DNA of 64,000 bases from Escherichia phage vB_EcoM_PTE-Eco05. This document shows, piece after piece, positions 10,677 to 31,999 of this stretch. The translations under genes were made by a program, and so were the position numbers. A model generated the notes under the pieces. It ran no database searches. It was not told the DNA's origin and saw nothing but the letters and a program-made list of their open reading frames with translations. The stretch's first letter is position 1. Each line of letters starts with the position of its first letter. The stretch lies in the sequence record PQ306573.1, one strand, 5' to 3'.

Positions 10677-11348
10677 TTATTTAGCCCGCCCTAATATCCT
10701 TGCTGCTTGGTTGCATATTGCAGCCAAGCGTTCTTCATTTAACACATCCGACCCCTTATACCAATACATAGAAACAGTTCCAGCATATATGTTATCCAAA
10801 TTGAAGTAAGGACAACTATACATATACGCCAGTTCCGGAGTTTTTGATTTGGTAGGTAAGAAAGCAAAATCTGTTTTAGAAGTAAAGTGAAGTCCACTTA
10901 AATGGACCGAATATTCTGCTGTCGTTTTATCAACAGGAAATCCTCCCATAGATTTTTCAGTTACTGTGCTAGGTAACTTACCTTCATACGCAATAAGGTC
11001 GACGAAATAATTTAGATTTTTAGGTCTGAAAGAATACACCGAACTAAAATCCGCCCTTGATGTGACGTGGACTATTTGTAGTTGTTCTAAAGCCGCAGAT
11101 TCAAATCGTGTATTTCTTTCTTTTTGAATTACTTCTGTGTAAGTATCATATTTCGACCTCACGTAATAATCCATAAAAATATTCCCTTTGTACCATATTA
11201 GTGCCATTAGGAACAAAAGAACTACAACAGCAACTCTTGAAATAAGAATATTTCCGGAGGCGTTATCTTTGAAAATGCGGTCTAGCAACCCAAATAAAAT
11301 ATCACTAGGCGAAAATGATACTTTTGGTGCTGCCATATTACCTCCCAT
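10677..11348 (-). CDS. t: Holin (lysis-inhibition-sensing holin T)
   Basis: 223 aa; N-terminal TM segment, large periplasmic domain, C-terminus ICNQAARILGRAK as in T4 T. Confidence 0.9.
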   Translation of the reverse strand: MGGNMAAPKVSFSPSDILFGLLDRIFKDNASGNILISRVAVVVLLFLMALIWYKGNIFMDYYVRSKYDTYTEVIQKERNTRFESAALEQLQIVHVTSRADFSSVYSFRPKNLNYFVDLIAYEGKLPSTVTEKSMGGFPVDKTTAEYSVHLSGLHFTSKTDFAFLPTKSKTPELAYMYSCPYFNLDNIYAGTVSMYWYKGSDVLNEERLAAICNQAARILGRAK

Positions 11349-11355
11349 TTATCAA

Positions 11356-11363
11356 TATTTATA
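11356..11363 (-). promoter_or_regulatory. Late promoter (TATAAATA) for t
   Basis: TATAAATA on - strand upstream of t start. Confidence 0.6.
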
Positions 11364-11381: not shown

Positions 11382-12167
11382 TTAAATCCAGGAGCCGTAG
11401 ATTGTGCCTGTAGCACCCCATGACGGTGAACTTCCGAATACTGCTCTGCCAGGAGAACCACCGCCGGATCTAGATAAGTGTTTACCCCATCCATCTCCGC
11501 CCCGACCTCCAGCATCACCGCCATTGCCTCCGCCGTATTGGGAAGTGTAACCGGCACTGCCCGGGGCGTCATAACTAGCATTACCGCCAGGCCAATTAAC
11601 GCCACCGCCGCCGAGGCCAAATGGTCTGCCGCCACCGCCACCTGCTGTAGCATTTGGCGCCCAGCTATTCTGTAATGACACTGCACCACCACCACCACCA
11701 CCTGATGCAATAACGCCATAGTTCCAAATACGAAGTCTTCCGCCGATATCATTTTGGATTACATCGCCACCATTTGTGCCTGGGTTTCCGTTTACAGTAC
11801 CGTTACCACCTCGTCCCCACATATGAACTCCACCATGAATATTCAAAGTAACATATTCATTTGGCGTATCGCCATACATAAAGAATAATGGAACATCTTT
11901 ACTATATGATACTAAATTTCCAGTGATATTAAACACTATAGGTGCACTACCTGCCTCAAAACATCTATCTCGGAACCATTGACCATTGAAGTTATGGTCT
12001 GCTCCAAGTGTGTGAATTACTTCAACAGATCGACCTATCATATTACTCATCCAAAACGGAATTCCCATTCTCAATCTCTGTGCGGCACCACCCATCCAAT
12101 TTTGTCCTGTATTAACTACTGCAGACGATCCTACCCACGGTCCTGTTACTGCCATATAAACCTCCAA
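11382..12167 (-). CDS. 38: Glycine-rich gp38 receptor-recognising adhesin (T2/T6 type)
   Basis: 261 aa; multiple poly-Gly runs (GGGGG) separating variable segments; sits between 37 and t. Confidence 0.75.
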
Positions 12168-12180
12168 GGGCCGAAGCCCC
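12168..12180 (-). other. Intercistronic UUCG-tetraloop RNA hairpin between 37 stop and 38 RBS
   Basis: - strand GGGGC-TTCG-GCCC followed by GGAGG RBS. Confidence 0.5.
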
Positions 12181-12185
12181 TCTTA

Positions 12186-15100
12186 TTATTTTAACAATGA
12201 TTTAACTAATGCTTTAAGTTCTTCAATTTCTGATTTAAGTTCCGCAATTTCTGTAGTATGTTCATTTATTGCAGCTGTATTTAAACCAATTACACCGTTA
12301 TAGTTCAAACGAAGTAAAGCTTCGCCATCGGGGTCACCTTCAACTAATTCTGGTAAAATAGCTTGAACTTCTTGGGCTATCAAACCGGCGTTAGGTTCCC
12401 ATTTCTGATTGCCTTCTTCGTCCGTTCCACGTTTCTGCATATAAGTGTAACCGTTAATTTTAGAAAGCTTCTCAGAAGCATTTTCAAATTTAACAAGGTC
12501 TTTTTTAACACGAATATCAGAACGGACATAAACATCACGGACAAACGTTGAATAACTATCATTTGCCTGAACGAGATGCCCATGAGAAACGATAGCTCTT
12601 CCAACTTCTGTCCAAAAAGCACCGGTTGAATCCCAAAGCCCAGGATGAGATTGATAGCCTGCTCCCCAGTTTGCAATATGTATACCATTGGCAACCATAT
12701 TGATTCGGCCGTCACCACCATGAACTAATCCGGTGTCATTATCACCAATAACAACACATGCGCCTGTCCATGCAGGGTCACCTCCACCAGCTGATATTCT
12801 TACTCCAGCTTTAACCATGTCAGGAACGTACATGTTTCCATTATGGTGGAATTCGAAGATAGCTTGTGGGTCGGAACCGTTTTCCTGATTACCTACACGA
12901 ATAATACCTTGTGCCCAGTTATTAGGAATGCGTCGCATACCAAAATCAACACCAGATACGTATCCATCATTCGTAATAACAGATTTTCCTTTGATAATTG
13001 GATAATAACTATCATTACCGACGTAGCCAAAATCCACAAATACGGGAGCTTCCTGGCGCCATTGATTTCCCCAATCGCCGGCCTGGTGTGCGGTCCAGAC
13101 CGACCCATTTATATAAATTCGGTCCCTATTAAAATTAAAAGTGGCAGTCCCTTCCGGGTTTAAAGCAATATCACCACCATTATTAACATATATGCCTGAT
13201 CTATTTTGGAAACTATAAAACGATATGGCATTATCAGCACCACCATTACCTACATACCAGTTATCAACGCCTGCTTTTTGTCCTTTCAAATAGCCAGATT
13301 CGGTTGCCGTGCTATTAATAACGATGGCATCAGAGTTTGCATTAAGAGTTAAGCGACCTGTCATCGTGTCGCCTTCTTTAGAAACACGGGTAGCTATTGC
13401 ATCGCGAATATTTGTAGTGTCTCCTGCTGAAGTAAACGATTTCCAAATATCCGAGAAAATATTACCATTACGAGCAATAGTAGCTTCACCGCCGCCGACC
13501 TGAACGTTATCTGGGAAGTTAACAGTACCGTCTTGATTAAAACGAGACGTATGGCCTTGTGAACCATCTTCTTTCAGATGATGAATAACGAATGTACCCG
13601 AACTAATTTCAGTACCTAAAGACCAAACAGCTTTACCATTTAAAAACTTCTGTTTAACAATAGGATAATATTTGCTTACAGCATCATCATCAATTTCCTG
13701 GAAAATAGGAGCCGCTTGAGCATATTGAATATCATAACCACCAGCGCCTGCGCCATGACCAGTAAATTTAATATAGCCGTTTGCTGCGAACGTATTGTAA
13801 CTTGATTGTAAATCTGGAATAGTAACTTTACCAGTATCTAAAGCCATACTAAACGGGCGAAGTGGACCGATATCACCATTTTTGCCTTCACCATAAGCAG
13901 TCGGAATAATATGAAGACTACCTTCTGAACGTCTAAAAATGGCTCCATAATCTGCGTTCCAAATACGAAGCGCATTCACTGCTCCAGATGAAATTTCGCC
14001 TGTTGTGTGAACTCCTCTATTTCCAGCAGTAACACCAGATGATTCAAATGAACCGTTAACGTTCATTTCTACTTCACCTGTTGTAAGTCTTTGAATATAG
14101 CTCATCCAACTAGTTGCATCAGAAATTTCCATGACGTTTTTACGATTACCTACACTAGGATTAGTAAACGTATTGCCCCACACAGAAATTGTCATATTAT
14201 CAACTGAACTAGCTCCGGTCGTGTTACCTCTAAACATCAGTGTAGAAGCATTATTTCTACCATCGATATTAACAGAACCACCAATAACGTCAATATTACC
14301 AGGAGTAACTAACAAACCGCCGTGAGTATTAATGTTTGTGGTACCCTTGCCGCGGAAATAATGATGATAGTTACCGCCTTGATAATATCCTAAAAGAGTC
14401 TGACCATCTCCAAACGCGTTATTATCGTGATATGTCACGACAGTAGCGAGAGCATAGTTTTCAGTTGGAGGAGTAGTTAAATCGGTTCCGTTAGTAGAAT
14501 ATCCAGCTACAAATTTTCTTAGGCTAGTTGTTTCGCTGGGACTAAATAAAAATGTTTTCGTTCCATTATTAACGCTAAAATAATATCCATCTTGATGCCA
14601 TTTAAATCCAGTATCATTATCGCCAAGAGAAATTGAAGCAGTCCCTAATTCAGAGTATCCTTTATTGCCACCAGGAGTACCAACAGAAATAGAATGGCCT
14701 GCTTTCAATCCACCTGACCAGGTAAACGACCAAAGATAAGTGTCTAAGCCATCTCCAGTATACCAAGTTATTCCATCATTATCTTTAACTTCATGGAATA
14801 CACCAGCGCCTACAGCATTGCGCATAACACGGAGATGATTAATAGCAGTAGTGCTTTCAGACAATGGAACGTTGTCTGCCATAGAATAAATGTCATAATC
14901 GCTCGTAGATTTATTATTAGTAATAACTCTATTTGTCAAAATCTGAGGAGTTGACATAGATTTCCATGCTGATACTTCAGGTGAAGTAAATAGTCCACTG
15001 CCCGAAAATGCATAGGTGCTTTCATCACCAGCGGCGTAGTCTTTAACGCGGATATTAACTACTTGCGTAGTTAATCCATCATTAGCCGGTGCATAAATAA

Positions 15101-15497
15101 TGCCACGTTCACGATCAGCCGAATCATGAAAACGAACATGTGCTGTACCTGAACTTTTTGTAATAAGTTCACCGCCTTCGGTCATAATCTGCCCAGCGGC
15201 AATAATATCACGAGTTACTCGAGCAATACCGGTTAAATTAAAATTACCTGTCTGAGTGAAGGTGCCATTTAAAGTATAATCGCCAGTTTGGTTATAATTG
15301 CCAGTATGAATAACATTCCCGTCAATACTACCACCTTTAGCAAAACCCAGATCAATAATATTTCCTTGGTCATCTTTAGTAAAAAGTACACGGTCTTTTA
15401 AGTTTATAGCCAATTCACCTTCGGCTAATACTGAAGCGGCAGGACGTGCTCCTGCAGTTTTGCTTCTTTTAAATTGTATTTGTTTTAAAGTAGCCAT
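12186..15497 (-). CDS. 37: Long tail fibre distal subunit gp37 with C-terminal intramolecular chaperone (peptidase S74-like) domain
   Basis: 1103 aa; C-terminal ~112 aa beginning SDIRVKKDL...NAGLIAQEVQ, coiled-coil tail; gene order 34-35-36-37. Confidence 0.9.
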   Translation of the reverse strand: MATLKQIQFKRSKTAGARPAASVLAEGELAINLKDRVLFTKDDQGNIIDLGFAKGGSIDGNVIHTGNYNQTGDYTLNGTFTQTGNFNLTGIARVTRDIIAAGQIMTEGGELITKSSGTAHVRFHDSADRERGIIYAPANDGLTTQVVNIRVKDYAAGDESTYAFSGSGLFTSPEVSAWKSMSTPQILTNRVITNNKSTSDYDIYSMADNVPLSESTTAINHLRVMRNAVGAGVFHEVKDNDGITWYTGDGLDTYLWSFTWSGGLKAGHSISVGTPGGNKGYSELGTASISLGDNDTGFKWHQDGYYFSVNNGTKTFLFSPSETTSLRKFVAGYSTNGTDLTTPPTENYALATVVTYHDNNAFGDGQTLLGYYQGGNYHHYFRGKGTTNINTHGGLLVTPGNIDVIGGSVNIDGRNNASTLMFRGNTTGASSVDNMTISVWGNTFTNPSVGNRKNVMEISDATSWMSYIQRLTTGEVEMNVNGSFESSGVTAGNRGVHTTGEISSGAVNALRIWNADYGAIFRRSEGSLHIIPTAYGEGKNGDIGPLRPFSMALDTGKVTIPDLQSSYNTFAANGYIKFTGHGAGAGGYDIQYAQAAPIFQEIDDDAVSKYYPIVKQKFLNGKAVWSLGTEISSGTFVIHHLKEDGSQGHTSRFNQDGTVNFPDNVQVGGGEATIARNGNIFSDIWKSFTSAGDTTNIRDAIATRVSKEGDTMTGRLTLNANSDAIVINSTATESGYLKGQKAGVDNWYVGNGGADNAISFYSFQNRSGIYVNNGGDIALNPEGTATFNFNRDRIYINGSVWTAHQAGDWGNQWRQEAPVFVDFGYVGNDSYYPIIKGKSVITNDGYVSGVDFGMRRIPNNWAQGIIRVGNQENGSDPQAIFEFHHNGNMYVPDMVKAGVRISAGGGDPAWTGACVVIGDNDTGLVHGGDGRINMVANGIHIANWGAGYQSHPGLWDSTGAFWTEVGRAIVSHGHLVQANDSYSTFVRDVYVRSDIRVKKDLVKFENASEKLSKINGYTYMQKRGTDEEGNQKWEPNAGLIAQEVQAILPELVEGDPDGEALLRLNYNGVIGLNTAAINEHTTEIAELKSEIEELKALVKSLLK

Positions 15498-15505
15498 AAG
15501 TCCTC

Positions 15506-16213
15506 TTAATAATAGCCGAAATCTTGAACAGAATCCTTAATAACAATTTGGTCAAATCGTGGAACATGTGAGGGTTGAGATGCAGGATTCTGTGAGAAAA
15601 AGTTTGGGGCAGTTAGCGCGCCGGTCATCGTATCTCCTGAACGGAGTACACGACTGTTTGCATTAGCATTAACTGTATTTATTTGACTATCAACATAATC
15701 TTTGCGAGTAAGGTCGTAATTATTTAAAGGTGCTAACGTTGTGGCTCTGAATTGAGATGCTTCAATAACGCCTTTAGAACTTATATTACCGGTGCGAGTA
15801 TCAATTACAACAGTTCTTTCACCTGTACCTTGAGATGATTTAAACCCAATACCATACCACGAAACAATATCCATGTTTGTTTGGTCGAATGTCGCGGCGT
15901 CAGCACCACCAGAAAAAATACCATTCGTTTGGTCATCTGCTGTTTTGACTGCAACACCTTCGTTAAAGATTACCTTTTTGAGATATGTCCCACCATTTGC
16001 TTTAGATACGAAATCGTTATCAGCCGCTTTTGGCTTGTTATATTCGGTGTATAATTTAAATGTTTTATATAGGATGTCATCGCCAGCTGGCATTAAAGGA
16101 AAATTGCCTTGATGCCATATGACGGAACCACCAACTGTACTTCCGGCTTTTAAATCGGCCATTTCGTGTCTCCTTATTAATATTAAAGTATTTATACGCG
16201 AAAAGGAGACCAA
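15506..16213 (-). CDS. 36: Long tail fibre distal connector gp36
   Basis: 235 aa; position between 35 and 37. Confidence 0.8.
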   Translation of the reverse strand: MVSFSRINTLILIRRHEMADLKAGSTVGGSVIWHQGNFPLMPAGDDILYKTFKLYTEYNKPKAADNDFVSKANGGTYLKKVIFNEGVAVKTADDQTNGIFSGGADAATFDQTNMDIVSWYGIGFKSSQGTGERTVVIDTRTGNISSKGVIEASQFRATTLAPLNNYDLTRKDYVDSQINTVNANANSRVLRSGDTMTGALTAPNFFSQNPASQPSHVPRFDQIVIKDSVQDFGYY

Positions 16214-16221
16214 AGTCTCCT

Positions 16222-17346
16222 TTATTCTGTGTACTCTTTAAATTCCTGCCCAAATACCTTACCTGTGTCGTTAGATAACTGAGTAGGCAAGTCCATTATA
16301 TCATTACCGGTTAATGATTCATCAATGTAATTAACACGAATACCGTTTATACCAAACTCGGCGGGTTTTGCTATACTTCCGTTACATGATACTTCAGTGA
16401 AAATAACATTTCTTAGTCCACCTTGACCGACTGAGGCCGTACGGTAACAATATACTGTAAAGCCATCAGCTTCAGCTGGTATTTCAACGTATTCTTCATA
16501 TAGCTTCCACTCCCGGGCAGTTCCATCAAAGTTTATATCTTTAGATGATATAGGAGAGCTAGATGGAGACTTAAAGAAACGAATTGAAAGTCTTGTGGTT
16601 CCTTCCTCTAATAATTCTTCATCAGCCATTAATTGAAATTTCAAATAAAGAAAATCTGTAGGCTTTAATCCATAGTTTGCGATAGGAGTAACAAGGGATG
16701 ATGTAGGCATCCTTTTTATTTCATTGTTAGTTCCTCCAACAGGAGATAAAAACGTTTCTAGAGCTTCATATGTACGTCTAGGATAGCCGGTAGCACCTAT
16801 ATCAGCAATAGAGTCATATACAATATCTAATGGAGTTGCGTAATCAGAAATTGTTTTCTTATTACTGTATTTTATGTGTTCTAATGCAATAGTATTTTTA
16901 CCTGAAACATAAAACGCTGAATATGAAATATCAACAAGACTAGCAACTTCAATCGACGGTATAACTGAACTCCCAGCAGCTTTAAACCATTCAATTATTT
17001 CTGGCGGCAAATTAAATTTGTTATTAGAAATAAATGCGAAAATGAAATTATCTGCGTATGTGTTAACAAACGAAATAAATGCAGCTGAAGTTGCATTATT
17101 TGTAGGCGCAAAATTGTATAATTTACTATCAACTATAGTTCCATTTTCCGGATTTATCACCCTAACATTTAGTCCAATACCAAAAGACTGCAACCCTAAA
17201 GGCTCATTTTGGAATAAAATATACGGATTAGTTGTTGAAAGCGGGCATGAACCCGCTATACTTAGCTTAAATCTAACTGAATTGCTTTCCGATAAAAACG
17301 GCGTTTGGACGTATCCCTGTCCAAACCTTGCCATAAATTTTTCCAT
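16222..17346 (-). CDS. 35: Long tail fibre hinge protein gp35
   Basis: 374 aa; position between 34 and 36. Confidence 0.8.
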   Translation of the reverse strand: MEKFMARFGQGYVQTPFLSESNSVRFKLSIAGSCPLSTTNPYILFQNEPLGLQSFGIGLNVRVINPENGTIVDSKLYNFAPTNNATSAAFISFVNTYADNFIFAFISNNKFNLPPEIIEWFKAAGSSVIPSIEVASLVDISYSAFYVSGKNTIALEHIKYSNKKTISDYATPLDIVYDSIADIGATGYPRRTYEALETFLSPVGGTNNEIKRMPTSSLVTPIANYGLKPTDFLYLKFQLMADEELLEEGTTRLSIRFFKSPSSSPISSKDINFDGTAREWKLYEEYVEIPAEADGFTVYCYRTASVGQGGLRNVIFTEVSCNGSIAKPAEFGINGIRVNYIDESLTGNDIMDLPTQLSNDTGKVFGQEFKEYTE

Positions 17347-17354
17347 ATAACCTC

Positions 17355-20300
17355 TTATTCAACCCATATAAATTTAACTGTTTTGTTAACCGGGTCTGGA
17401 ACAATTCTCACATTTCCTAATTGTAAGAAGTCTCGAACAGTAAGGTTTCCAATAACAGCATTATCAGATGGGATAGCACCGACATCGCTAGGTGAAGGTG
17501 GGTTGCCACTATCAAATACCATTGCAAATGAAGTCCAAGCATCTTTATTTTTCTGCCAGGTACGAGTATAACGAATACTACCACCATTTGCACCTGTAGG
17601 ATAACAAATCCAATCCTGATAAAGCGAATCTAAGCTATTGCCGAATTGAGTCAAAGTACCAGGATATTTAATTTCTTGGTCACGGTTACCTTTGTTATCA
17701 CGCGTCCAGTATCCAGGGAATTGGCTATATACAGCAGAATCGTTAATGTCAATAGACCAAAAACCTACAGTAGAAGCTGTTGGTTTATCGGTATAAACAG
17801 TGGCAGTTTGAACGCCGTTAGAAATAATTCTGTTATTTACAGTTAACCCACCGGTAGTTATTGTTGCACCACTTGTGATTTGAACACCATTGTCAAGACG
17901 AACTAAGCCTGTGGCGTTGTTAATCGTGATCGGGCGTAAGTTATTAAACGTCCCGGTCTGGTCACCTGAGTTAGTTAATGCAATATAAGAACTGTTACCA
18001 GCGTTATAAAGCATAACACCATAGTTACCGTTAATAGCTCTGAATGCAATAGGAGAACTAGAAACAATTTCGCCTGTAGCACTAATAGGCCCGGTAAAAG
18101 TAGAAACACCTGTAACATTTAATCCATTTGTAGAAACAATACCTGTTGAATAAAGTGTTCCATTAATATTAAATGATACTTTATTATCAGCAGCGCGCTG
18201 AGAATAGAAATGGTATCCGGTTTCGTCACCCGCTTCAAATACTGTATCACGGGCACCATCTGTAGCGCTATTGCCCCATGCTCTAACAACGAAATTCTCT
18301 TTATTACTAAGAGATTGGGTTCCTTTAGTGAAAACTATTTCGGAACCGCTAGAGTCATTAAGAGTTAATCTACGAGTAACAGATGCTTCGGAACCAAAAG
18401 AAGCAGTGCTTGTAGATACTAAAGGAGCACTCAGGTTGGTCTGTTTAGTAAGACTTAAAGAACCATTAACCGTCTGGTCGATGTCTCTACGGATGAACTG
18501 AAGAGAATCTAGACCATCTAACAAATTACTATCAGCTGCTTTAGCTTTCAACGGTAAGTAGTTAGCAAGTACACGGTTTAATTCATATGGAGAAATAGCA
18601 TAACTATTTTTCTCATAAAGATTCAAATCCTGGGTATTACCTTGAGTATCGTCACCGACAAATGTAATAGAACCAGATGAAGTTTTAACGAATCCACGAA
18701 TTGCCGTAGTAGCAGTCCATGATGGTTCTGATTGAACAATCCATTTTAAATTCTTAGGTGATACAGCAGTATTAGCAGAAGTTCCCGTTACAGTTTCATC
18801 TTGAGTAGCAACCTTAATCACGCCTTCAGACGTTTCAGTGGACTTAGTCCCTAAAAGCTTTTTAGGAGTAATAAGAACATCATCTAAAGTTCCTGCATTA
18901 GATTCTGCCTGGGTCGCTACGCGAAGTGTACCGCGTTGTGTTTCATTTGCTTTAGAAATATCAAGAGTATAATGGTTCCACAAGGTTCCTTCTTCAATAA
19001 GTCCGGAATCAGAATTAACACTGGTACGGTCAGAAGAATCAAAATGAGTTTTAATTTTCAGTGGAGACGAGATACGAGTATCGTCAGTTCCAGTATCAAA
19101 TTCAACTTGCGTAGCAATTTCGGCTATGCCAGATAATCCTTCCGTAGCTTTCCTATCATTTAACGTCTTAGGCGTTACTGCTCTAGTATAATCAGTTCCA
19201 GTGTTAGTTTCTGCTTGCGTAGCAATTTCAATTAAACCAATACGACCATCAGTAGAAGTTTTCTTATGCAGAGTTTCAGGGGTCACTACAGCATTAGCCC
19301 AACCGGCTTGTGATTCGCCAGCGATAACTTCACTTTCAATAGCAAGAATTACTGCACCCTGCTGAGTAGGGGTAGCTTTATACTGGTCAAGAGCCTTTGG
19401 AGAAATAGTTAAATTATCTACGGCTTTGTTATAAACGTTAGTCCCAGCATTACCGCGAATAGTAGCAGCTGTAGTACCAGTCGTAGATGTGTATTTTACA
19501 ATACCAGATAAAACTTCAGAACCTTGACGGGCATCCAATTTCTTAGGAGTAATAATAGTGGTATCATCTGTGCCAGCATTAGTTTCAGCCTGAGTTGCAA
19601 CTTCAGCAACACCTCTACGGGTTTCAGTTGCTGTACGTTCATTCAATTTCTTAGGAGAAATAATCAAATCATCCTGGAATGCAAAATCGGTATTCTGGTT
19701 AACTTGTGCAGTTGTTGCAATACGAGCAATACCACGACGAGTTTCAGTTGCTGTACGATTTGCTAATGTTTCTGGAGTAATAGCCAGTTCTTTACCAGGA
19801 GCATTTTCTAAATCAACATTTGCTTGCGCTTGAGAAGCAAGAGCAATAACACCTAAACGAGCTCGAGTTGTATTGCTCGATGCATCGACTCGTTCGACGG
19901 TTACAGTGTTTTGTTGAACTACCCAATATTTTGTTTCAGATGAATAATCTTCTATATAAGCTAACTCAAGTACAGGTACATACGAAGTATCACCATTAAA
20001 TTCCAGCTCACTAACAGAAACCCATTGTGCATCAGGTGGATACTCCGAACGTTTTGGGAACTGTAATAAAGAAATACTGCTAGCAATTGTATCGCCTTCA
20101 GCAGCTTTAATTTTTACAGTTTGCCCTTTACGCATGTAATTCAACGATATTTTAACAGTATCGCCAGACAAAATATCTGTAGGCAAAGTAAGATTTACCG
20201 TCGAGATTGTATTATTATCAGTTCCAAAAACAAGAACTTCTTCATTAGGGTGTAAATCAGTATCATTACGAACTATACGTAAACGAGATTTCTGGTCACC

Positions 20301-21188
20301 TTCCCAAACTCTCCACAAACTAGATGCTGCATCAAAAATAAAAAGAGCATCAGCAAAATTACGTCCTTCTGCTACATGAACACCGGCTTCTCGTATAGAA
20401 GTTGTATCATCGTAAGTTTTGACAATTGTGTGATATAATGGGTTTAATTTGTCTAAATCCACTAAATTAATAATATCGCCATTATTAGCATTACGAGGCA
20501 ATGTAATATTAATAGGAGCGGCTGATGTAAAACGTCGAATGATAAAATCATTAGGTTGCGCTTGATATGGCGTAGCAGGAGTTACTGTGACTGCATTACG
20601 TTCGTAATCAGAAACATACATTTGCCATAGGCGGTTGCTAAAAATGAAGACCATTTTAGATTTTGGGTGCGTCATTAAAACTGAACGAACCTGTTGTCCT
20701 CTAAAGTTTACAATACTTTGAGCCGCTGCAGTAATTTGAACTTTTACATAGCCTACTCTACCGCCAATATCAGACAAAATAACTGTATCGCCATCTAAAG
20801 GATTTTGAGGCAAAGTGAAATTAATATCAGTGCCAGCTGAAGTATCAACCGCAATAGAGTTACCTACTGATAATTGGAAATCTCCGCCTTGAACTGTAAT
20901 CCATTCTGCATCAGCACGAGTTGCCTTCCATTTAGCCAAAGAGAAAGGGCCTGCCGGAGCTGGAATATCGCTTAAAGCTTGATAAAAACGATTATTATAA
21001 AGAACAATAAAATCTTTTGTATACGCGCGCGTCTCGTCATAATTCTGTACGGTGTTTTCTTGCACCAAAAAGTCAACGTTCACGCCATCGGTGCCAACTG
21101 TGCGGTCGGCAAGCGCAACGTTAACTATCTTATCACCGCCTGCGTCAAGACCATCTTCGGCCCTGAACTTACGTTTGATGTCAACCAT
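17355..21188 (-). CDS. 34: Long tail fibre proximal subunit gp34
   Basis: 1277 aa; N-terminus FRAEDGLDAGGDKIVNVALADRTVGTDGVNVD matches T4 gp34. Confidence 0.92.
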   Translation of the reverse strand: MVDIKRKFRAEDGLDAGGDKIVNVALADRTVGTDGVNVDFLVQENTVQNYDETRAYTKDFIVLYNNRFYQALSDIPAPAGPFSLAKWKATRADAEWITVQGGDFQLSVGNSIAVDTSAGTDINFTLPQNPLDGDTVILSDIGGRVGYVKVQITAAAQSIVNFRGQQVRSVLMTHPKSKMVFIFSNRLWQMYVSDYERNAVTVTPATPYQAQPNDFIIRRFTSAAPINITLPRNANNGDIINLVDLDKLNPLYHTIVKTYDDTTSIREAGVHVAEGRNFADALFIFDAASSLWRVWEGDQKSRLRIVRNDTDLHPNEEVLVFGTDNNTISTVNLTLPTDILSGDTVKISLNYMRKGQTVKIKAAEGDTIASSISLLQFPKRSEYPPDAQWVSVSELEFNGDTSYVPVLELAYIEDYSSETKYWVVQQNTVTVERVDASSNTTRARLGVIALASQAQANVDLENAPGKELAITPETLANRTATETRRGIARIATTAQVNQNTDFAFQDDLIISPKKLNERTATETRRGVAEVATQAETNAGTDDTTIITPKKLDARQGSEVLSGIVKYTSTTGTTAATIRGNAGTNVYNKAVDNLTISPKALDQYKATPTQQGAVILAIESEVIAGESQAGWANAVVTPETLHKKTSTDGRIGLIEIATQAETNTGTDYTRAVTPKTLNDRKATEGLSGIAEIATQVEFDTGTDDTRISSPLKIKTHFDSSDRTSVNSDSGLIEEGTLWNHYTLDISKANETQRGTLRVATQAESNAGTLDDVLITPKKLLGTKSTETSEGVIKVATQDETVTGTSANTAVSPKNLKWIVQSEPSWTATTAIRGFVKTSSGSITFVGDDTQGNTQDLNLYEKNSYAISPYELNRVLANYLPLKAKAADSNLLDGLDSLQFIRRDIDQTVNGSLSLTKQTNLSAPLVSTSTASFGSEASVTRRLTLNDSSGSEIVFTKGTQSLSNKENFVVRAWGNSATDGARDTVFEAGDETGYHFYSQRAADNKVSFNINGTLYSTGIVSTNGLNVTGVSTFTGPISATGEIVSSSPIAFRAINGNYGVMLYNAGNSSYIALTNSGDQTGTFNNLRPITINNATGLVRLDNGVQITSGATITTGGLTVNNRIISNGVQTATVYTDKPTASTVGFWSIDINDSAVYSQFPGYWTRDNKGNRDQEIKYPGTLTQFGNSLDSLYQDWICYPTGANGGSIRYTRTWQKNKDAWTSFAMVFDSGNPPSPSDVGAIPSDNAVIGNLTVRDFLQLGNVRIVPDPVNKTVKFIWVE

Positions 21189-21222: not shown

Positions 21223-21230
21223 TATTTATA
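21223..21230 (-). promoter_or_regulatory. Late promoter (TATAAATA) for gene 34
   Basis: TATAAATA on - strand ~35 nt upstream of gene 34 start. Confidence 0.6.
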
Positions 21231-25305: not shown

Positions 25306-25893
25306 ATGCTTAAATTAGTATTCGCATGTGCTCCGACTAAAACAGTTGATGATAAACTGGAATATGCTTTTGGATTAGGTGATGGACTTCCATGGAAGCA
25401 TATCAAACAAGATATGAGTAACTTTGTTGCTCGCACTAAAAACACTGTAATGGTTATGGGTGCTAAGACATTTGCATCATTACCTCGTCTACTCCCAGAT
25501 CGTACTCATGTGGTTGTCACTGATATGGCCAGAGAACTGCCTAGGACCAAAACCAACGAACTTGCGCGTTTCTATATCACCCAATCTGAATTTATTACCT
25601 TGGTAATGGGTGGTGAAATTAACCTGTTTAGCACTGCAACTGACGTACCATTTAAACTTTCTACTGAACATGTTGATGTATCTGTTATTGGTGGCCCTGC
25701 TTTATTGAAACAAGCATTGCCTTATGCTGATGAAATCGTGATGACTAAAATCATTAAGAAATGTCGTGTTAATTCCGATGTTCAACTTGATAAAGATTTC
25801 GTCCAAGATATTATGCTTCAACGTTCTATGGTAGAATCTCATTACTACAGAATCGATGAACTCACCGAAATTACTGAGAGCGTTTATAAATGA
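25306..25893 (+). CDS. frd: Dihydrofolate reductase
   Basis: 195 aa; GLGDGLPW, VIGGPALL motifs; precedes td. Confidence 0.88.
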   Translation: MLKLVFACAPTKTVDDKLEYAFGLGDGLPWKHIKQDMSNFVARTKNTVMVMGAKTFASLPRLLPDRTHVVVTDMARELPRTKTNELARFYITQSEFITLVMGGEINLFSTATDVPFKLSTEHVDVSVIGGPALLKQALPYADEIVMTKIIKKCRVNSDVQLDKDFVQDIMLQRSMVESHYYRIDELTEITESVYK

Positions 25894-26438
25894 AACAATA
25901 CCAATACCTGATTAAAGATATCTTAGAAAATGGCTACGAAACAGACGACCGTACAGGTACAGGCACTATTGCCCTGTTCGGAACTAAATTGCGATGGGAT
26001 CTGACTAAAGGATTCCCTGCGGTAACAACTAAGAAATTAGCATGGAAAGCTTGTATTGCCGAGTTACTGTGGTTCATGTCTGGCTCTACCAATGTTAATG
26101 ATTTGCGTATTCGTACTCATGGTAGTCTTATTCAAGGTAAAACTATTTGGGACGACAACTATGAAAATCAGGCAAAAGACCTTGGATATCATAGCGGCGA
26201 ACTTGGTCCTATTTATGGTAAGCAATGGCGTGATTTTGGTGGTGTAGACCAATTGGTCAAAACTATCGACCGTATTAAAGCTCTTCCTAATGATCGTCGT
26301 CAAATAGTTTCTGCATGGAACCCGGCTGAAATTGACCAAATGGCTCTTCCTCCTTGTCATATGTTCTATCAATTTAATGTGCGTAATGGACATCTTGATT
26401 TACAATGGTACCAACGCAGTGTTGATGTTTTCTTAGGT
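25890..26438 (+). CDS. td: Thymidylate synthase, exon 1
   Basis: 183 codons ending ...QRSVDVFLG; in-frame TAA immediately follows at intron start; exon 1 + exon 2 = 286 aa. Confidence 0.88.
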
Positions 26439-27454
26439 TAATTTAGGCCTAGGTATAAGGTGACTTATACTTGTAATCTATCTAAACGGGGGACCTCTCT
26501 AGTAGACAATCCCGTGCTAAATTGTAGGACTACCCTTTAATAAATACTTCTATATAAAAAGAGGTGTTTATGAAAAGCGGAATTTATCAGATTAAAAACA
26601 CTTTAAACGGTAAAGTGTATGTTGGAAGTGCTAAAGATTTTGAGAAAAGATGGAAGAGGCGTTTTAAAGACCTTGAAAACGGTGTTCACTCTTCTATAAA
26701 ATTTCAAAGGTCTTTTAATAAACATGGTAATGTTTTTGAATGCTCTGTACTGGAAGAAATTCCATATGAGAAAGATTTGATTATTGAACGAGAAAATTTT
26801 TTGATTAAAGAGCTAAATTCTAAAATTAATGGATATAATATTGCTGATGCGTCTTTTGGCGATGTGCTTTCAAATCATCCATTAAAAGAAGAAATTGCTA
26901 AGAAACGAGCTGAAACTGTTAAAGCTAAGATGCTTAAGCTTGGTCCTGACGGTCGGAAAGCTCTTTATGGTAAACACGGAAGTAAAAATGGCCGATGGAA
27001 TCCAGAAAACCACAAGTTTTGTAAATGCGGTGTTCGCATACCATCTTCGGCCGATACTTGTGGAAAGTGCCGAAAACGTTCAGGTGAAAATAACCCGTTC
27101 TTTAATCACAAACATTCAGAAAAAACTAAAACTAAACTATCTGAAAAGATGAAAGGCAAAAAGCCAGCTAACATCAAAAAGATTTCATGCGATGGGATTA
27201 TTTTTGAATGTGCAGCCGATGCGGCTAGACATTTTGAAATTTCATCAGGATTAGTTACTTACCGTGTAAAATCTGATAAGTGGAATTGGTTCTACATAAA
27301 TGCCTAACGACTATCCCTTTAGGGAGTAGGGTCAAGTGACTCGAAACGATAGACAACTTGCTTTAACAAGTTGGAGATATAGTCTGCTCTGCATGGTGAC
27401 ATGCAGCTGGATATAATTCCGGGATAAGATTAACGACCTTATCTGAACATAATG
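26439..27454 (+). ncRNA. td group I self-splicing intron (1016 nt) carrying the I-TevI ORF
   Basis: Begins TAATT.AGGCCT.GGTATAAGGTGACTTATAC..., ends ...GAACATAATG before exon 2; length equals T4 td intron. Confidence 0.85.
26570..27307 (+). CDS. I-TevI: GIY-YIG homing endonuclease I-TevI
   Basis: 245 aa from ATG 26570; GIYQIKN...KVYVGSAKDFEKRW GIY-YIG motif; C-terminal DNA-binding region; inside td intron. Confidence 0.9.
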   Translation: MKSGIYQIKNTLNGKVYVGSAKDFEKRWKRRFKDLENGVHSSIKFQRSFNKHGNVFECSVLEEIPYEKDLIIERENFLIKELNSKINGYNIADASFGDVLSNHPLKEEIAKKRAETVKAKMLKLGPDGRKALYGKHGSKNGRWNPENHKFCKCGVRIPSSADTCGKCRKRSGENNPFFNHKHSEKTKTKLSEKMKGKKPANIKKISCDGIIFECAADAARHFEISSGLVTYRVKSDKWNWFYINA

Positions 27455-27766
27455 CTACCGTTCAACATTGCCTCGTACGCTGCCTTGACGCATATTGTAG
27501 CGAAGATGTGTAACCTTATCCCAGGTGATTTAGTGTTCTCAGGCGGCAACACGCATATCTACAGCAATCATGTAGAACAATGCAAAGAAGTTCTTCGTCG
27601 TGAACCTAAAGAGTTGTGTTCTCTTGAAATTAATTGGCCTAGTAATTTTGAGAATTGGCCTACAAAAATCCAAATGGACTGGGTTACTGGAACGATGACA
27701 CATTCTGATTTCGTTCTTAAAAATTACGAATCTCATCCAACTATCAAAGCTAAAATGGCGGTATAA
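27455..27766 (+). CDS. td: Thymidylate synthase, exon 2
   Basis: Frame resumes LPFNIASYAALTHIV... directly after intron-terminal G. Confidence 0.85.
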   Translation, partial: LPFNIASYAALTHIVAKMCNLIPGDLVFSGGNTHIYSNHVEQCKEVLRREPKELCSLEINWPSNFENWPTKIQMDWVTGTMTHSDFVLKNYESHPTIKAKMAV

Positions 27767-28108: not shown

Positions 28109-29533
28109 ATGCAAGTAACTAAGAGCAGTGGTGTATCCCAAAATTTTGATGCACAGAAAATTATTCAAGTCTTAACTTGGCAATGTGAAGGAACACAAAT
28201 TGACCCATATGAATTGTACGAAGAAATTAAGACCCATCTTGTCGACGGGATGAGCACCAAAGATATCCAGAAGATTTGTATTAAAGTTGCAGCTAACTCG
28301 ATTTCTGTCGAAGAACCTGATTATCAGTATGTCGCCGCCAAAGGGCTAATGTTTGCACTTCGTAAAGATGTATATGGGCAGTTTGAACCGCCTGCTTTTA
28401 TCGACCATATTTCTTATTGTGTTAATGAAGGCAAATATGACCCTGAGCTGTTGTCTAGATATTCTGCAGAAGAAATCATTTATCTTGATTCTCGGATTAA
28501 ACATGAGCGAGATTTTGACCTGACTTATGCTGGTGCTATGCAGCTTAAAGAAAAATACCTGGTTAAAGATAAAACAACTGGGAAGATTTATGAAACTCCA
28601 CAGTTTGCTATCATGGCTATCGGTATGGCCTTACACCAAGACGAAACTCATGACCGTTTGAAACATATTATTCGTTTTTATGATGCCGTTTCTACTCATC
28701 AAGTTTCATTGCCAACCCCAATTATGGCAGGTGCTCGTACTCCAACTCGCCAGTTCTCTAGTTGTGTAGTTATTGAAGCCGGTGATTCGTTAAAATCTAT
28801 TAACAAAACTTCAGCATCAATTATTGAATATATTTCTAAACGAGCTGGTATTGGTATCAACGTTGGTATGCTTCGTGCAGAAGGTTCTAAGATTGGTATG
28901 GGTGAAGTTCGACATACAGGTGTTATTCCATTTTGGAAACATTTCCAAACTGCAGTAAAATCTTGTTCTCAAGGTGGTATTCGTGGTGGTGCTGCTACAG
29001 CGTATTATCCGATGTGGCACTTAGAAGTAGAGAACCTATTAGTTCTGAAAAATAACAAAGGCGTGGATGAAAACCGTATTCGACATATGGACTACGGAAT
29101 TCAGATTAATGACCTCATGATGGAACGCCTTGGTAAAAATGATTATATTACTTTATTTAGCCCTCACGAAATGTCAGGCGAACTATACTACTCGTTCTTT
29201 GAAGATCAAGATAAATTCCGTGAGCTTTATGAGAAAGCTGAAAAAGACCCAACAATCAGAAAGAAAAGAATCAAAGCACTAGAACTCTTTGAATTGTTCA
29301 TGACTGAACGTTCTGGTACTGCTCGAATTTATCCACAGTTTGTTGATAACACGAATAACTACACTCCGTTTATTCGTGAAAAAGCTCCAATTCGTCAGAG
29401 TAACTTATGTTGTGAAATCGCTATTCCAACTAATGATGTGAATAGCCAACAAACCCGTTTAATCAAAATTAAGAAGTCGGATGTAGCTAAGTTTTATGAA
29501 GCTAATCCTGGCGGTATAATTCAAAGCAAATAA
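28109..29533 (+). CDS. nrdA: Ribonucleotide reductase large subunit, N-terminal piece (NrdA-a): ATP cone through NLCCEI active-site motif
   Basis: 474 aa; contains NLCCEIAIPT (E. coli C439/E441 equivalent) then a 28-aa tail and stop. Confidence 0.85.
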   Translation: MQVTKSSGVSQNFDAQKIIQVLTWQCEGTQIDPYELYEEIKTHLVDGMSTKDIQKICIKVAANSISVEEPDYQYVAAKGLMFALRKDVYGQFEPPAFIDHISYCVNEGKYDPELLSRYSAEEIIYLDSRIKHERDFDLTYAGAMQLKEKYLVKDKTTGKIYETPQFAIMAIGMALHQDETHDRLKHIIRFYDAVSTHQVSLPTPIMAGARTPTRQFSSCVVIEAGDSLKSINKTSASIIEYISKRAGIGINVGMLRAEGSKIGMGEVRHTGVIPFWKHFQTAVKSCSQGGIRGGAATAYYPMWHLEVENLLVLKNNKGVDENRIRHMDYGIQINDLMMERLGKNDYITLFSPHEMSGELYYSFFEDQDKFRELYEKAEKDPTIRKKRIKALELFELFMTERSGTARIYPQFVDNTNNYTPFIREKAPIRQSNLCCEIAIPTNDVNSQQTRLIKIKKSDVAKFYEANPGGIIQSK

Positions 29534-29578
29534 AGTACACAGACCGTTAATAAATAATCCATAACAAGAGGAAAAGTT

Positions 29579-30289
29579 ATGGATTATTCTAAAATTTACA
29601 ATAACCTTATTTCTAAAGCTAAGAATAGAAAATTAGATTGCTATACCGAATCACACCATATTATACCTCTGTGTATTGGTGGTTCTGATACAAAGGAAAA
29701 CCTGGTAGATTTGACACCAGAAGAGCATTACATAGCTCATCAATTATTAGTAAAGATATATCCAGATAATCATAAATTGATATTTGCCGCTAATATGATG
29801 TGTGTTTATTCTAAAGATAATATTGAACGAAAGAACACCAATAAACGCCATGGGTGGCTTAGAAGAAAATTGGCTATTTCTGTATCTGAAAATAATAAAG
29901 GCAAACCAGCTTGGAACAAAGGTATTCCTATGTCTCCAGAAGTTAAATCTCGACTTCAAACATCTTGGGTGTTTACATTTCCGGATGGTCATGAGGAAAT
30001 TCATCGAGGTCTTAACGAATTTTGTAAAGAGCATAATTTAAATCCATCTGCAATGTCAGCCGTTTGTAAAGGTAAACGGGCGCATCACAAAGGATTTAAG
30101 TGTAAGAAATTGGATAAGATTTCAGAGCTTGATAATTTAGTTTTCGTCAGTAAACCTCATCCAAAGGGATTAAAACCCCATAACTTAATTGCTGTAAAAA
30201 TAAACGGTATAGAATATCAATCAATACATCGAGCATCTAAAGCTTTAGGAATTACTAGAAAAAAGGTAGAAGAATTAAATGAATATTGA
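29579..30289 (+). CDS. Free-standing HNH homing endonuclease (MobE/Hef-like) inserted within nrdA
   Basis: 236 aa; HNH motif ESHHIIPLCIGGSDTKENLVDLTPEEHYIAH; C-terminal HTH-like IEYQSIHRASKALGITRKKV; own RBS AAGAGGA. Confidence 0.85.
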   Translation: MDYSKIYNNLISKAKNRKLDCYTESHHIIPLCIGGSDTKENLVDLTPEEHYIAHQLLVKIYPDNHKLIFAANMMCVYSKDNIERKNTNKRHGWLRRKLAISVSENNKGKPAWNKGIPMSPEVKSRLQTSWVFTFPDGHEEIHRGLNEFCKEHNLNPSAMSAVCKGKRAHHKGFKCKKLDKISELDNLVFVSKPHPKGLKPHNLIAVKINGIEYQSIHRASKALGITRKKVEELNEY

Positions 30290-31268
30290 TTATGAATTTG
30301 TAGATGAATTTTACGAAGATGATGAGTATACTACAATAAAAGTTATTGAAAACAAGGGAGAAGTGGGGCTTTGTACTCTCTCTGCATTCGTATTAGATAA
30401 ATTTGATTGGCAAGACCAAGATAAAATTAATGAACTTGCTGAAGTACAAGTACGTGCACTTGATAACCTGTTAGACTATCAAGATTATCCGGTTCCAGAA
30501 GCTTTAAAAGCTAAAAAGCGTCGTAATCTTGGTGTTGGTGTTACGAACTATGCTGCATGGTTAGCTTCTAACTTTGCTTCATATGAAGACGCTAACGATT
30601 TGACTCATGAATTGTTTGAGAGATTGCAATATGGCCTTATCAAAGCATCAATCAAACTCGCCAAAGAAAAAGGATGTTGCGAGTATTATTCAGACACTAA
30701 ATGGTCTAGAGGCGAATTACCTATCGACTGGTACAATAAAAAGATTGACCAAATCGCAGCCCCGAACTACGTCTGTGACTGGGAAGAACTTCGAGCTGAA
30801 CTCAAAGAACATGGAATTCGTAACTCAACGTTGTCTGCACTCATGCCTTGTGAGTCAAGCAGTCAAGTATCGAACTCTACAAACGGGATTGAGCCCCCAC
30901 GTGGTCCAGTAAGTATTAAAGAATCTAAAGAAGGCAACTTCCGACAGGTTGTTCCTAATATCGAACATAACATGAGTCTTTACGACTACGCGTGGAAACT
31001 TGCTAAGAAAGGTAATAAACCTTATTTGACCCAAGTTGCTATCATGTTGAAATGGGTGTGCCAATCTGCTTCTGCTAATACTTACTACGACCCTGCAGTA
31101 TTTGAGAAAGGTAAAGTGCCAATGTCAGTAATGCTTGACGATCTGCTTTACTTCTGGTACTTTGGCGGAAAAAACCTCTACTATCATAACACCCGTGATG
31201 GGTCAGGTACAGATGACTATGAATTAGAAACACCTAAAGCTGAAGATTGCTCTGCTTGTAAGCTTTAA
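30279..31268 (+). CDS. nrdA: Ribonucleotide reductase large subunit, C-terminal piece (NrdA-b)
   Basis: 329 aa; GLCTLSAF (E. coli C462 equivalent), C-terminal CSACKL redox tail; ATG embedded in HNH gene 3' end with AAGGTAG RBS. Confidence 0.85.
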   Translation: MNIDYEFVDEFYEDDEYTTIKVIENKGEVGLCTLSAFVLDKFDWQDQDKINELAEVQVRALDNLLDYQDYPVPEALKAKKRRNLGVGVTNYAAWLASNFASYEDANDLTHELFERLQYGLIKASIKLAKEKGCCEYYSDTKWSRGELPIDWYNKKIDQIAAPNYVCDWEELRAELKEHGIRNSTLSALMPCESSSQVSNSTNGIEPPRGPVSIKESKEGNFRQVVPNIEHNMSLYDYAWKLAKKGNKPYLTQVAIMLKWVCQSASANTYYDPAVFEKGKVPMSVMLDDLLYFWYFGGKNLYYHNTRDGSGTDDYELETPKAEDCSACKL

Positions 31269-31323: not shown

Positions 31324-31999
31324 ATGAGTACAGTTTTTAATACACAACAAGTCGATGTTTTGAACGAACCGATGTTCTTTGGTTCTGGTCTTGGTCTTGC
31401 ACGGTATGATATTCAGCGTCATAAAGTTTTTGAAGAACTTATAGAAAAATCCTTGTCATTTTTCTGGCGCCCCGAAGAGGTAAACTTAATGTTGGACTCT
31501 GCACAGTTCAATAAGCTTCCTCAGTTCCAACAGGACATCTTTACAAACAATCTTAAGTATCAATCATTATTGGATTCTATCCAAGGCAGGGCCCCATCTG
31601 CGGTACTTATGGCACTGCTTTCCGACCCTTCATTAGATACGTGGGTTGCAACATGGACATTCAGTGAAACTATTCACTCTCGTTCATATACTCATATTAT
31701 GCGAAATCTTTATACCGATCCATCCAAAGTATTTGATGAGATTGTATTAGACGAAGCAATCATGAAACGAGCTGAATCAATAGGTAAATATTACGATGAT
31801 GTTCTAGTCAAGACTCGTAATTGGGAAAATGCTAAAGAATTTGTAGAACTAGCTAAAGAATCTCCTGATGCCGACTTTCGTTTAAACCGAGCTATTAAAC
31901 AAGAAGCCGAAGCTAAACGTGCTTTAATGAAATCTCTTTACCTCTGTTTGCACGTTATTAATGCCTTAGAAGCTATTCGTTTTTATGTATCTTTTGCGT
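31324..31999 (+). CDS. nrdB: Ribonucleotide reductase small subunit, exon 1
   Basis: Ends ...EAIRFYVSFA + first nt of Cys codon; in-frame TAA at intron start. Confidence 0.85.

Follow-up and report, generated by a model that had tools for sequence, protein, structure and literature searches.

Is the distal long tail fibre of Escherichia phage vB_EcoM_PTE-Eco05 built like that of T4, with a gp37 needle and a removable gp38 chaperone, or like that of T2, with gp38 itself as the adhesin, and which receptor would such a tip recognise? We addressed this question in a 64,000-nt window of the phage sequence (PQ306573.1), to which all positions below refer. The original prediction had described a gp37 with a self-cleaving C-terminal chaperone together with a T2/T6-type glycine-rich tip adhesin in place of the T4-type chaperone. 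This reading was borne out by family matches, by full-length homology to the PDB entries 6F45 (the solved S16 gp37-gp38 complex of Dunne et al. 2018) and 9V85 (a PP01 gp38 domain), and by near-identity to the annotated genes of RB69, RB51 and FL31. With high confidence, the module is the distal long-tail-fibre host-recognition unit of an RB69-like (Mosigvirus) T-even phage, constructed on the known T2/S16 plan, and no feature of the sequence speaks against this model. For both proteins, the analysis shows the gene structure and the family membership, the conservation of catalytic and docking residues, near-identity with relatives that have been characterised and a mosaic ancestry; cleavage of gp37, a 3:1 gp37:gp38 assembly and binding to OmpF we infer by homology only. 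The open reading frames, Pfam matches and glycine content exclude a chance pattern for the gp37 chaperone and gp38 adhesin features. The tip module is thus real and was correctly read, and its biology is already known: gp37 processing, the gp38 adhesin, the design of glycine motifs and variable loops, the crystal structure and the recognition of OmpF by this gp38 subtype have all been published, and little of the biology is new.

Organisation of the 37-38 module

The list of open reading frames placed both genes where they had been predicted, on the minus strand. Gene 37 (12186..15497) encodes the precursor of the long tail fibre distal subunit (1103 aa plus stop), which PHROG 1699, 'long tail fiber protein distal subunit', matches over its full length. 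Gene 38 (11382..12155) encodes the tail-fibre tip adhesin of 257 aa plus stop. It had been read from a TTG as a protein of 261 aa (11382..12167); we corrected this to 257 aa, since the TTG adjoins and partly overlaps the Shine-Dalgarno sequence (CCCTTGGAGGTTTATATG) and the 774-nt coding sequence is annotated from the ATG in RB69, FL31 and RB51. The 37-38 intergenic spacer (12156..12185, minus strand) contains a C(UUCG)G-closed hairpin (12166-12181) and then the Shine-Dalgarno motif GGAGG (12161-12165), 5 nt before the ATG. The hairpin is present, yet the whole 76-nt stretch folds no better than shuffled sequences (z = -1.06).

Late promoter boxes were found before g34 (21223-21230), g36 (16189-16196) and t (11356-11363); g37 and g38 have no such box of their own. 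From what is known of T4, the T4-type box upstream of gene 36 (TATAAATA, 16189..16196, minus strand) probably drives a late transcript of genes 36-37-38. The phage backbone is that of Mosigvirus (RB69-like). The original prediction had set a T2-like fibre beside T4/RB3-like introns: the statement on the introns checks out, but the odd pairing that it implied does not, since the gp38-adhesin architecture is usual in a Mosigvirus backbone.

Family assignment and docking domain of gp38

Pfam assigns gp38 to PF05268 (GP38) on aa 45-257 (E=6.3e-84, 281.6 bits, cut-off 25) and to PF21721 (Gp38_N) on aa 1-40 (E=1.8e-21, 76.3 bits, cut-off 25), with no other family at E≤0.01. The match to PHROG 2056 spans the full-length protein, aa 1-257 align to residues 1-249 of S16 gp38 (6F45_D, E=2.6e-50), and the receptor-binding domain of PP01 gp38 (9V85) matches with E=2.3e-75. 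Amino acid identity is 97.7% to RB51, RB68 and FL31 and 95.7% to RB69. In some records (RB69, JS10, UPEC01) the homologous gene is still labelled 'distal long tail fiber assembly catalyst', as would suit a T4-type assembly chaperone that is absent from the virion and leaves receptor binding to the gp37 tip. There is hardly any probability in such a role, given the membership of gp38 in the GP38 adhesin and Gp38_N families, its full-length homology to an S16 protein that was crystallised on the gp37 tip, and a note in the RB69 record itself that names the unrelated 'gp38' of the T2 subfamily as an adhesin. When the PDB was searched with full-length gp37, S16 gp37 and gp34 domains were the only hits at E≤0.01, and no tip structure of T4 gp37 was among them. 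A T4-type distal fibre was therefore rejected, as gp38 matches adhesin families only and the T4 gp37 tip is not matched; 'tail fibre tip adhesin' is a better label for gene 38 than 'assembly catalyst'.

The N-terminal attachment domain of the adhesin (aa 1-40; 12036..12155, minus strand), delimited by the Gp38_N match, contains Trp7, Trp20 and Trp35. They correspond to W7, W20 and W36 of S16, are conserved in T2 and T6, and belong to the N-terminal Trp residues of gp38 whose role is described in PMC7917993. One gp38 monomer would dock on the gp37 tip via this domain. The C-terminal half would fold as a polyglycine-II sandwich, with the glycine-rich motifs as its core and the receptor contacted by five variable loops at its distal end. 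S16 gp38, although only about 47-49% identical, shows the domain plan proposed here, with a three-Trp docking domain, a beta-helix and a polyglycine-II sandwich. AlphaFold2, run on the gp38 sequence alone, gave no usable model (pLDDT 31.3, pTM 0.19), and the proposed fold draws its support from sequence homology to crystal structures, not from an independent model.

Chaperone domain and predicted cleavage of gp37

The last 111 residues of gp37 (aa 993-1103; 12189..12521, minus strand) would constitute an intramolecular chaperone of the Peptidase S74 type, released after trimerisation. Pfam PF13884 (Peptidase_S74) matches aa 993-1052 of 1103 (E=9.6e-13, 48.7 bits, cut-off 22), the alignment of aa 911-1103 to S16 gp37 (6F45_A, E=1e-43) extends to the last residue, and matches to these ~110 aa sit at the very C-terminal end of many unrelated tail-fibre PHROGs. 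The S74 domain and the coiled coil that had been proposed were both found; the domain, which begins with SDIRVKKDL at residue 993, measures 111 aa instead of ~112. As read from the sequence, three clean heptads occupy the last 21 residues (aa 1083-1103, EIAELKSEIEELKALVKSLLK; 12189..12251, minus strand; a/d = I,L,I,L,V,L). This short segment, predicted to form a triple coiled coil, resembles the terminal one of the T5 pb1 chaperone (PMC4690869).

The cut had originally been put at the S-D bond. Homology to S16 gp37 and T5 pb1 places it one residue earlier, most likely at Arg992|Ser993 (codons at 12519..12524, minus strand), with Ser993 as the nucleophile and Lys998 (12504..12506, minus strand) as the predicted general base of the catalytic dyad. 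S16 gp37 is cut at DLNVS^SDRRIKK and that of the fPS phages at DVYIR^SDGRLKI (PMC7917993). In T5 pb1 the cut falls at Thr1263^Ser1264, the Lys (Lys1269) has the same Ser+5 spacing, and the Ser departs with the chaperone (PMC4690869, which also describes the mechanism). The SD.R.K motif with Ser993 and Lys998 is invariant in 8-9 homologues (RB69, FL31, RB51, KMB40, Bas47, T2, T6, S16) and can be aligned with the MyRF ICA motif as well. In S16 gp37, too, the tip precedes an S74 chaperone that carries S-D-x-R-x-K, but the protein is 749 aa long and has Ser at P1, where Arg stands here. The chaperones of K1F endosialidase and T5 pb1 (MEROPS/Pfam S74) share the C-terminal position and size (~110-130 aa), the Ser nucleophile with a Lys five residues on, the trimeric coiled coil at the end and the release after trimer folding (PMC4690869), the last being a prediction for gp37. 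In contrast to these systems, where profile-level similarity is detectable over the first ~60 residues only, release in our phage would bare the place where a separate adhesin docks, not the receptor-binding site itself.

Trimerisation of gp37 would start at the C-terminus. Once the triple beta-helix before the chaperone is properly formed, Ser993, activated by Lys998, would attack the Arg992-Ser993 bond in each chain and the chaperone would depart. This would leave a mature gp37 of aa 1-992 (12522..15497, minus strand) ending in ...RDVYVR992, as judged from the alignment to 6F45_A and the cleavage position in PMC7917993. A flat tip of three ...DVYVR992 strands would thereby be exposed, and this strand is the one predicted to form the gp38 docking tip; entry 6F45 holds three gp37 chains and one gp38 chain. 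The S74-like domain could instead persist on the mature fibre, either as an auto-chaperone that does not cleave or as a structural cap, with gp38 bound elsewhere, and some auto-chaperone-like C-terminal domains do stay uncleaved, for instance the P22 tailspike fin (PMC4690869). Such retention is very improbable here: the Ser/Lys(+5) dyad and its surrounding motif are intact and invariant, the gp37 of T2 and T6 undergoes C-terminal proteolytic processing before gp38 capping (PMC3157838, citing Drexler 1986), and in S16 the cleaved gp37 tip serves as the docking surface for gp38 (PMC7917993). Release of the domain with gp38 on the bared tip is hence the reading that we retain.

Specificity domain of gp38 and predicted receptor

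Glycine makes up 34% of the glycine-rich specificity domain of gp38 (aa 113-257; 11385..11819, minus strand) vs 12.5% of residues 1-112, which explains a local G+C peak of 0.51. Its motifs (GRGG 114-117, G6 152-157, G5 172-176, GGG 208-210 and GGG 231-233) bracket the variable loops. As had been predicted for the poly-glycine motifs, in our alignments they are invariant across OmpF, Tsx and T2 types, and the intervening segments vary. Identity over aa 113-257 is 96.6-97.2% to RB69, RB51, FL31 and Bas47 (AlbertHofmann). For the T6/KMB40, T2 and PP01 types it is 50-56%, and for S16 47%. T6 uses Tsx, T2 uses FadL/OmpF, and the receptor of S16 is Salmonella OmpC. The classical T2/T6 fibres share with ours the processed gp37, the conserved chaperone catalytic motif and a ~260-aa glycine-rich adhesin cap with hypervariable segments (PMC3157838), but their gp37 is just 27-35% identical overall and their gp38 specificity domain 52-55%. 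Loops A (120-125), B (161-170), C (184-188), D (203-207) and E (223-228) were mapped by HMMER alignment to PP01 with the loop definitions of PMC12892980, and these limits are approximate, as is the alignment within the hypervariable loops.

Loops A-C are identical to those of RB69, RB51, FL31, Bas47 and most other sampled relatives, and the specificity domain clusters with experimentally typed OmpF users. Because the loops are of the RB69/RB51/FL31/AlbertHofmann/fPS-2 type, the predicted primary receptor is OmpF, which would be bound with probably some dependence on the LPS core. The receptor class first proposed (OmpA/OmpC/OmpF/Tsx/FadL) could thus be narrowed by alignment with typed adhesins, and the practical value of the analysis is that a likely receptor and a cleavage site at Arg992|Ser993 can be named, both as predictions. 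Dependence on OmpF was reported for RB69 and RB51 (PMC3157838), AlbertHofmann/Bas47 (PMC8594841), FL31 (weak), FL33 and FL34 (PMC12032242), and fPS-2 and fPS-90 (PMC7917993). OmpF may not be the sole or strict receptor, since plating of FL31, which is among the closest gp38 relatives, was reduced by only about one log on an ompF mutant (PMC12032242), and RB69 and RB51 are also reported to require FhuA together with a full LPS core (PMC3157838).

One stretch of gene 38 (11454..11558, minus strand) carries four residues, G200S, F207Y, N225K and A234S, that are absent from all 14 sampled close relatives; its best DNA matches are FL33 (97.2%) and fPS-2 (96.8%). They fall within loops D and E or close by and could modify specificity. 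With the architecture unchanged, they might direct the fibre to a receptor other than K-12-type OmpF, such as another OmpF allele, OmpC, FadL or chiefly LPS. Y207 aligns with PP01 Tyr209, a loop D residue that infection requires, and K225 aligns with PP01 Ala228, an OmpC contact at the tip of loop E (PMC12892980), two pairings that share the approximate nature of alignments within the hypervariable loops. Host range was altered by single loop changes in Ox2 (PMC12892980 introduction) and in fPS phages (PMC7917993), and the merely weak OmpF dependence of FL31 points the same way. Nevertheless, the OmpF group has the same loops A, B and C, identity to it does not fall below 96.6% over the whole domain, and closely related gp38 proteins so far share one receptor (PMC12032242); moreover, Y207 and K225 are also present in gp38 of T2, a reported user of OmpF and FadL. 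We consider a different receptor unlikely and keep OmpF as the predicted one. That F207Y and N225K, with G200S and A234S, whose positions correspond to the loop D and E residues by which PP01 gp38 chooses its porin, retune an OmpF-type adhesin to another porin allele or a second receptor is likewise quite doubtful; if true, two to four residues would suffice for a natural switch of specificity in a Mosigvirus fibre with a shaft imported from Tequatrovirus.

Mosaic ancestry of the module

By sequence comparison, the module is a patchwork of segments of different ancestry: the flanks and the gp37 N-terminus are RB69/FL31-like, Tequatrovirus KMB40 (vB-Eco-KMB40) is the nearest match for the shaft and tip of gp37, and the gp38 specificity domain goes with RB69, RB51, FL31 and AlbertHofmann. 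RB69 (AY303349) is a Mosigvirus of the same backbone genus, with reported need for OmpF (PMC3157838), the gene order 36-37-38-t, genes of 3312 and 774 nt (1103 and 257 aa), 93.9% DNA identity over the module and a gp37 95.4% identical to ours. It differs in the gp37 tip (aa 901-1000) and the first 25 gp38 residues, which match FL31 and KMB40 instead, and does not share the four private gp38 residues described above. KMB40 gp37, also of 1103 aa, is 96.2% identical overall and 98-100% over aa 701-800 and 901-1103, and the gp38 N-terminal domain is 95.5% identical, whereas the flanking genes t and 36 show just 66-79% DNA identity, as befits a different genus, and the gp38 specificity domain is T6-like (49.7% identity). 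The locus is a further clear case of the exchange of tail-fibre segments between Mosigvirus and Tequatrovirus, with crossover points within conserved stretches, and such exchange is relevant to host-range engineering.

Type of the tail-fibre module and transcription of its genes

The tail-fibre genes lie in a contiguous late-gene block on the minus strand of the window, comprising genes 34 (17355-21188), 35 (16222-17346), 36 (ORF 15506-16213; 15506-16165 and 219 aa from its ATG), 37 (12186-15497; 1103 aa), 38 (11382-12155; 257 aa) and the holin gene t (10677-11348). The gp37-gp38 feature is real, and the original prediction, which described a T2-type module of distal fibre subunit and tip adhesin, read it essentially correctly; corrections were needed to the length of gp38, the predicted scissile bond and the genus context, and the receptor call could be narrowed. 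The module is a standard published system, with the same one present in RB69.

Gp38 matched the Pfam families GP38 (E=6e-84) and Gp38_N (E=2e-21) and, over its full length, PHROG 2056. Homology to S16 gp38 (6F45_D, E=2.6e-50) and to the receptor-binding domain of PP01 (9V85, E=2.3e-75) extends across the whole protein. S16 gp38 docks onto the gp37 tip through three N-terminal tryptophans (PMC7917993), all of which have counterparts here (W7, W20 and W35). In the 6F45 structure one gp38 chain accompanies three of gp37, which fits one adhesin per trimer. The variable segments are flanked by glycine motifs, as had been noticed from the sequence, and these motifs are invariant in gp38 alignments; glycine makes up 34% of residues 113-257, and its codon bias there accounts for a local G+C peak of 0.51. 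The AlphaFold2 model of gp38 alone (pLDDT 31) was too low in confidence for a fold search, and the predicted fold is supported by sequence homology to the two crystal structures. We rejected the possibility that gp38 is solely a T4-type chaperone, as gp38 matched no T4-type chaperone family and gp37 did not match the T4 gp37 tip structure. NCBIfam, a library aimed at bacterial and archaeal genomes, contained no model matching gp37 or gp38.

The coordinates originally given for genes 37 and 38 were correct. The 261 aa proposed for gp38 were not, since the TTG start adjoins and partly overlaps the ribosome-binding site CCCTTGGAGGTTTATATG; a 774-nt, ATG-started gene 38 is annotated in RB69, FL31 and RB51, hence the length of 257 aa. 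T4-type late-promoter boxes (TATAAATA) precede genes 34, 36 and t but neither gene 37 nor gene 38, a distribution which, judged by T4 biology, suggests that genes 36-37-38 are probably expressed as a single late transcript. In the 37-38 spacer, a 6-bp hairpin with a C(UUCG)G tetraloop (12166-12181, minus strand) separates the stop codon of gene 37 from the Shine-Dalgarno sequence of gene 38. Folding of the surrounding 76 nt is no better than that of shuffled sequences (z = -1.06); the hairpin could affect mRNA stability or translational coupling, and we make no functional claim for it.

Two in-frame ATGs, 12 nt apart (ATGGGAGGTAATATG), occur at the start of holin gene t (11336-11348, minus strand), the first overlapping a GGAGG expected to serve the other one. 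RB69 is annotated with the longer form (672 nt), FL31 and AlbertHofmann with the shorter (660 nt).

The C-terminal chaperone of gp37 and its predicted cleavage

The SDIRVKKDL motif of gp37 starts at residue 993, 111 residues from the C-terminal end. Residues 993-1052 matched Pfam Peptidase_S74 ("chaperone of endosialidase") above the cut-off (E=9.6e-13), residues 911-1103 gave an end-to-end alignment with the fragment of S16 gp37 in 6F45 (E=1e-43), and the C-terminal 21 residues read as three regular heptads. Matches to the C-terminal ~110 residues also lay at the very C-terminal ends of many tail-fibre PHROGs that are unrelated in other respects, as a portable module would be expected to show. 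Ser993 and Lys998 are invariant across RB69, FL31, RB51, KMB40, AlbertHofmann, T2, T6 and S16, with the spacing of the Ser1264/Lys1269 dyad of T5 pb1 (PMC4690869).

In T5 pb1 the Thr1263-Ser1264 bond is cut and the serine departs with the chaperone (PMC4690869). The S16 site is quoted as DLNVS^SDRRIKK (PMC7917993, citing Dunne et al. 2018), and for the fPS phages a cut at DVYIR^SDGRLKI was predicted (PMC7917993). By analogy with these positions, gp37 should be cut at RDVYVR^SDIRVKK, between Arg992 and Ser993, one residue upstream of the S-D bond named originally. C-terminal processing of T2/T6 gp37 followed by gp38 capping is described as established in PMC3157838, citing Drexler et al. 1986.

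Further upstream, gp37 contains a segment (residues 418-561; 13815-14246, minus strand) with homology to gp34, the proximal fibre protein, in its C-terminal trimerisation domain (Pfam Gp34_trimer, E=1.5e-7; PDB 4UXE, E=1.3e-12). This is a shaft module common to both half-fibres.

Predicted receptor

The specificity domain of gp38 (aa 113-257) is 96.6-97.2% identical to those of RB69, RB51, FL31 and AlbertHofmann, and only 47-56% identical to the T2, T6, PP01 and S16 types. For RB69 and RB51 the requirements are OmpF, FhuA and a complete LPS core (PMC3157838); OmpF is the target of AlbertHofmann (Bas47) (PMC8594841), FL33 and FL34 depend on it, FL31 only to a small degree, losing roughly one log (PMC12032242), and fPS-2 and fPS-90 use OmpF and LPS (PMC7917993). 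Since gp38 proteins that are close relatives are reported to share their receptor (PMC12032242), the earlier list of OmpA/OmpC/OmpF/Tsx/FadL-class candidates narrows to OmpF, which we predict with good confidence to be the receptor.

Four residues (G200S, F207Y, N225K and A234S) differ from all 14 of the sampled close relatives. In a HMMER alignment to PP01 gp38, with loops defined as in PMC12892980, Y207 corresponds to Tyr209 of loop D, essential for PP01 infection, and K225 to Ala228 at the tip of loop E, an OmpC contact (PMC12892980). The private residues could fine-tune specificity. However, the alignment within the variable loops is approximate, and T2 gp38 also has Y207 and K225. Import of the 11500-11650 patch (93-95% identity) from a different gp38 type was rejected because its best DNA matches, FL33 (97.2%) and fPS-2 (96.8%), are also OmpF-type; point divergence within the OmpF subtype is thus the simpler reading.

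Genus and mosaic ancestry

The flanks of the module are 96-97% identical to Mosigvirus genomes, e.g. FL31, PhAPEC2, p000v and mar005P1, and the 4.3-kb module as a whole shares 93.9% identity with RB69, in which gene order and gene lengths match exactly. The backbone is that of a Mosigvirus (RB69, PhAPEC2 and FL31-like, 96-97% identity), not of a T4/T2-type Tequatrovirus. Within the 24-kb stretch 15600-40000, no sequenced phage in the collection combined at least 99% identity with full coverage.

Mosaicism was analysed in 150-nt DNA windows and in protein windows. RB69/FL31-like sequence, at 99-100%, makes up genes t and 36 as well as gene 37 as far as codon ~280, whereas gene 37 from ~14650 down to its end at 12186, together with the start of gene 38, is nearest to Tequatrovirus KMB40 (mostly 93-100%; 89-90% in two windows), whose own flanks are only 66-79% identical. 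Across 12249-11650, identity to KMB40 drops from 99% through 93% and 83% to 51%; the KMB40 specificity domain is T6-like, in contrast to the RB69/RB51/FL31/AlbertHofmann-like one found here. This places the crossover within conserved sequence that precedes the first variable segment. Such exchanges have been described for this tail-fibre locus (PMC3157838). The exact gp38 sequence was found only on two Logan contigs, and the exact gp37 sequence was absent from the 15-billion-protein collection.

Putative introns and split genes

The original prediction contrasted a T2-like fibre architecture with T4/RB3-like intron content. The remark on introns is supported by the split nrdB gene; in Mosigvirus, however, phages usually carry a gp38 adhesin, so the architecture is no surprising hybrid. 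Rfam at gathering thresholds gave no match anywhere in the 64-kb window, and two intron cores were seen only in a permissive search. Gene nrdB (31324-33593, plus strand) is split into 31324-32001 and 33114-33593, and between the pieces lie a 269-aa HNH endonuclease ORF (32145-32954), which appears I-TevIII/RB3-like, and one of the sub-threshold group I intron matches (32799-33039; 33.9 bits, E=6.5e-5).

The thymidylate synthase gene (25890-27766, plus strand) is likewise split, with exon 1 at 25890-26441 covering positions 1-175 of the Pfam profile and exon 2 at 27452-27766 covering positions 176-266. The interval contains an I-TevI-like GIY-YIG endonuclease ORF (26564-27307) together with a group I intron match that is full-length though sub-threshold (27176-27406; 36.2 bits, E=1.4e-5); the intron looks like the T4 td type.

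Gene nrdA (28109-31268, plus strand) consists of two ORFs between which the barrel domain is exactly divided, the first (28109-29533) ending at profile position 221 of 523 and the second (30279-31268) beginning at position 219. Between them we found a 236-aa I-HmuI/NUMOD-like endonuclease ORF (29579-30289) and no intron RNA match; nrdA may have been split by a free-standing homing endonuclease. In phage AV111, nrdA is likewise annotated as two pieces.
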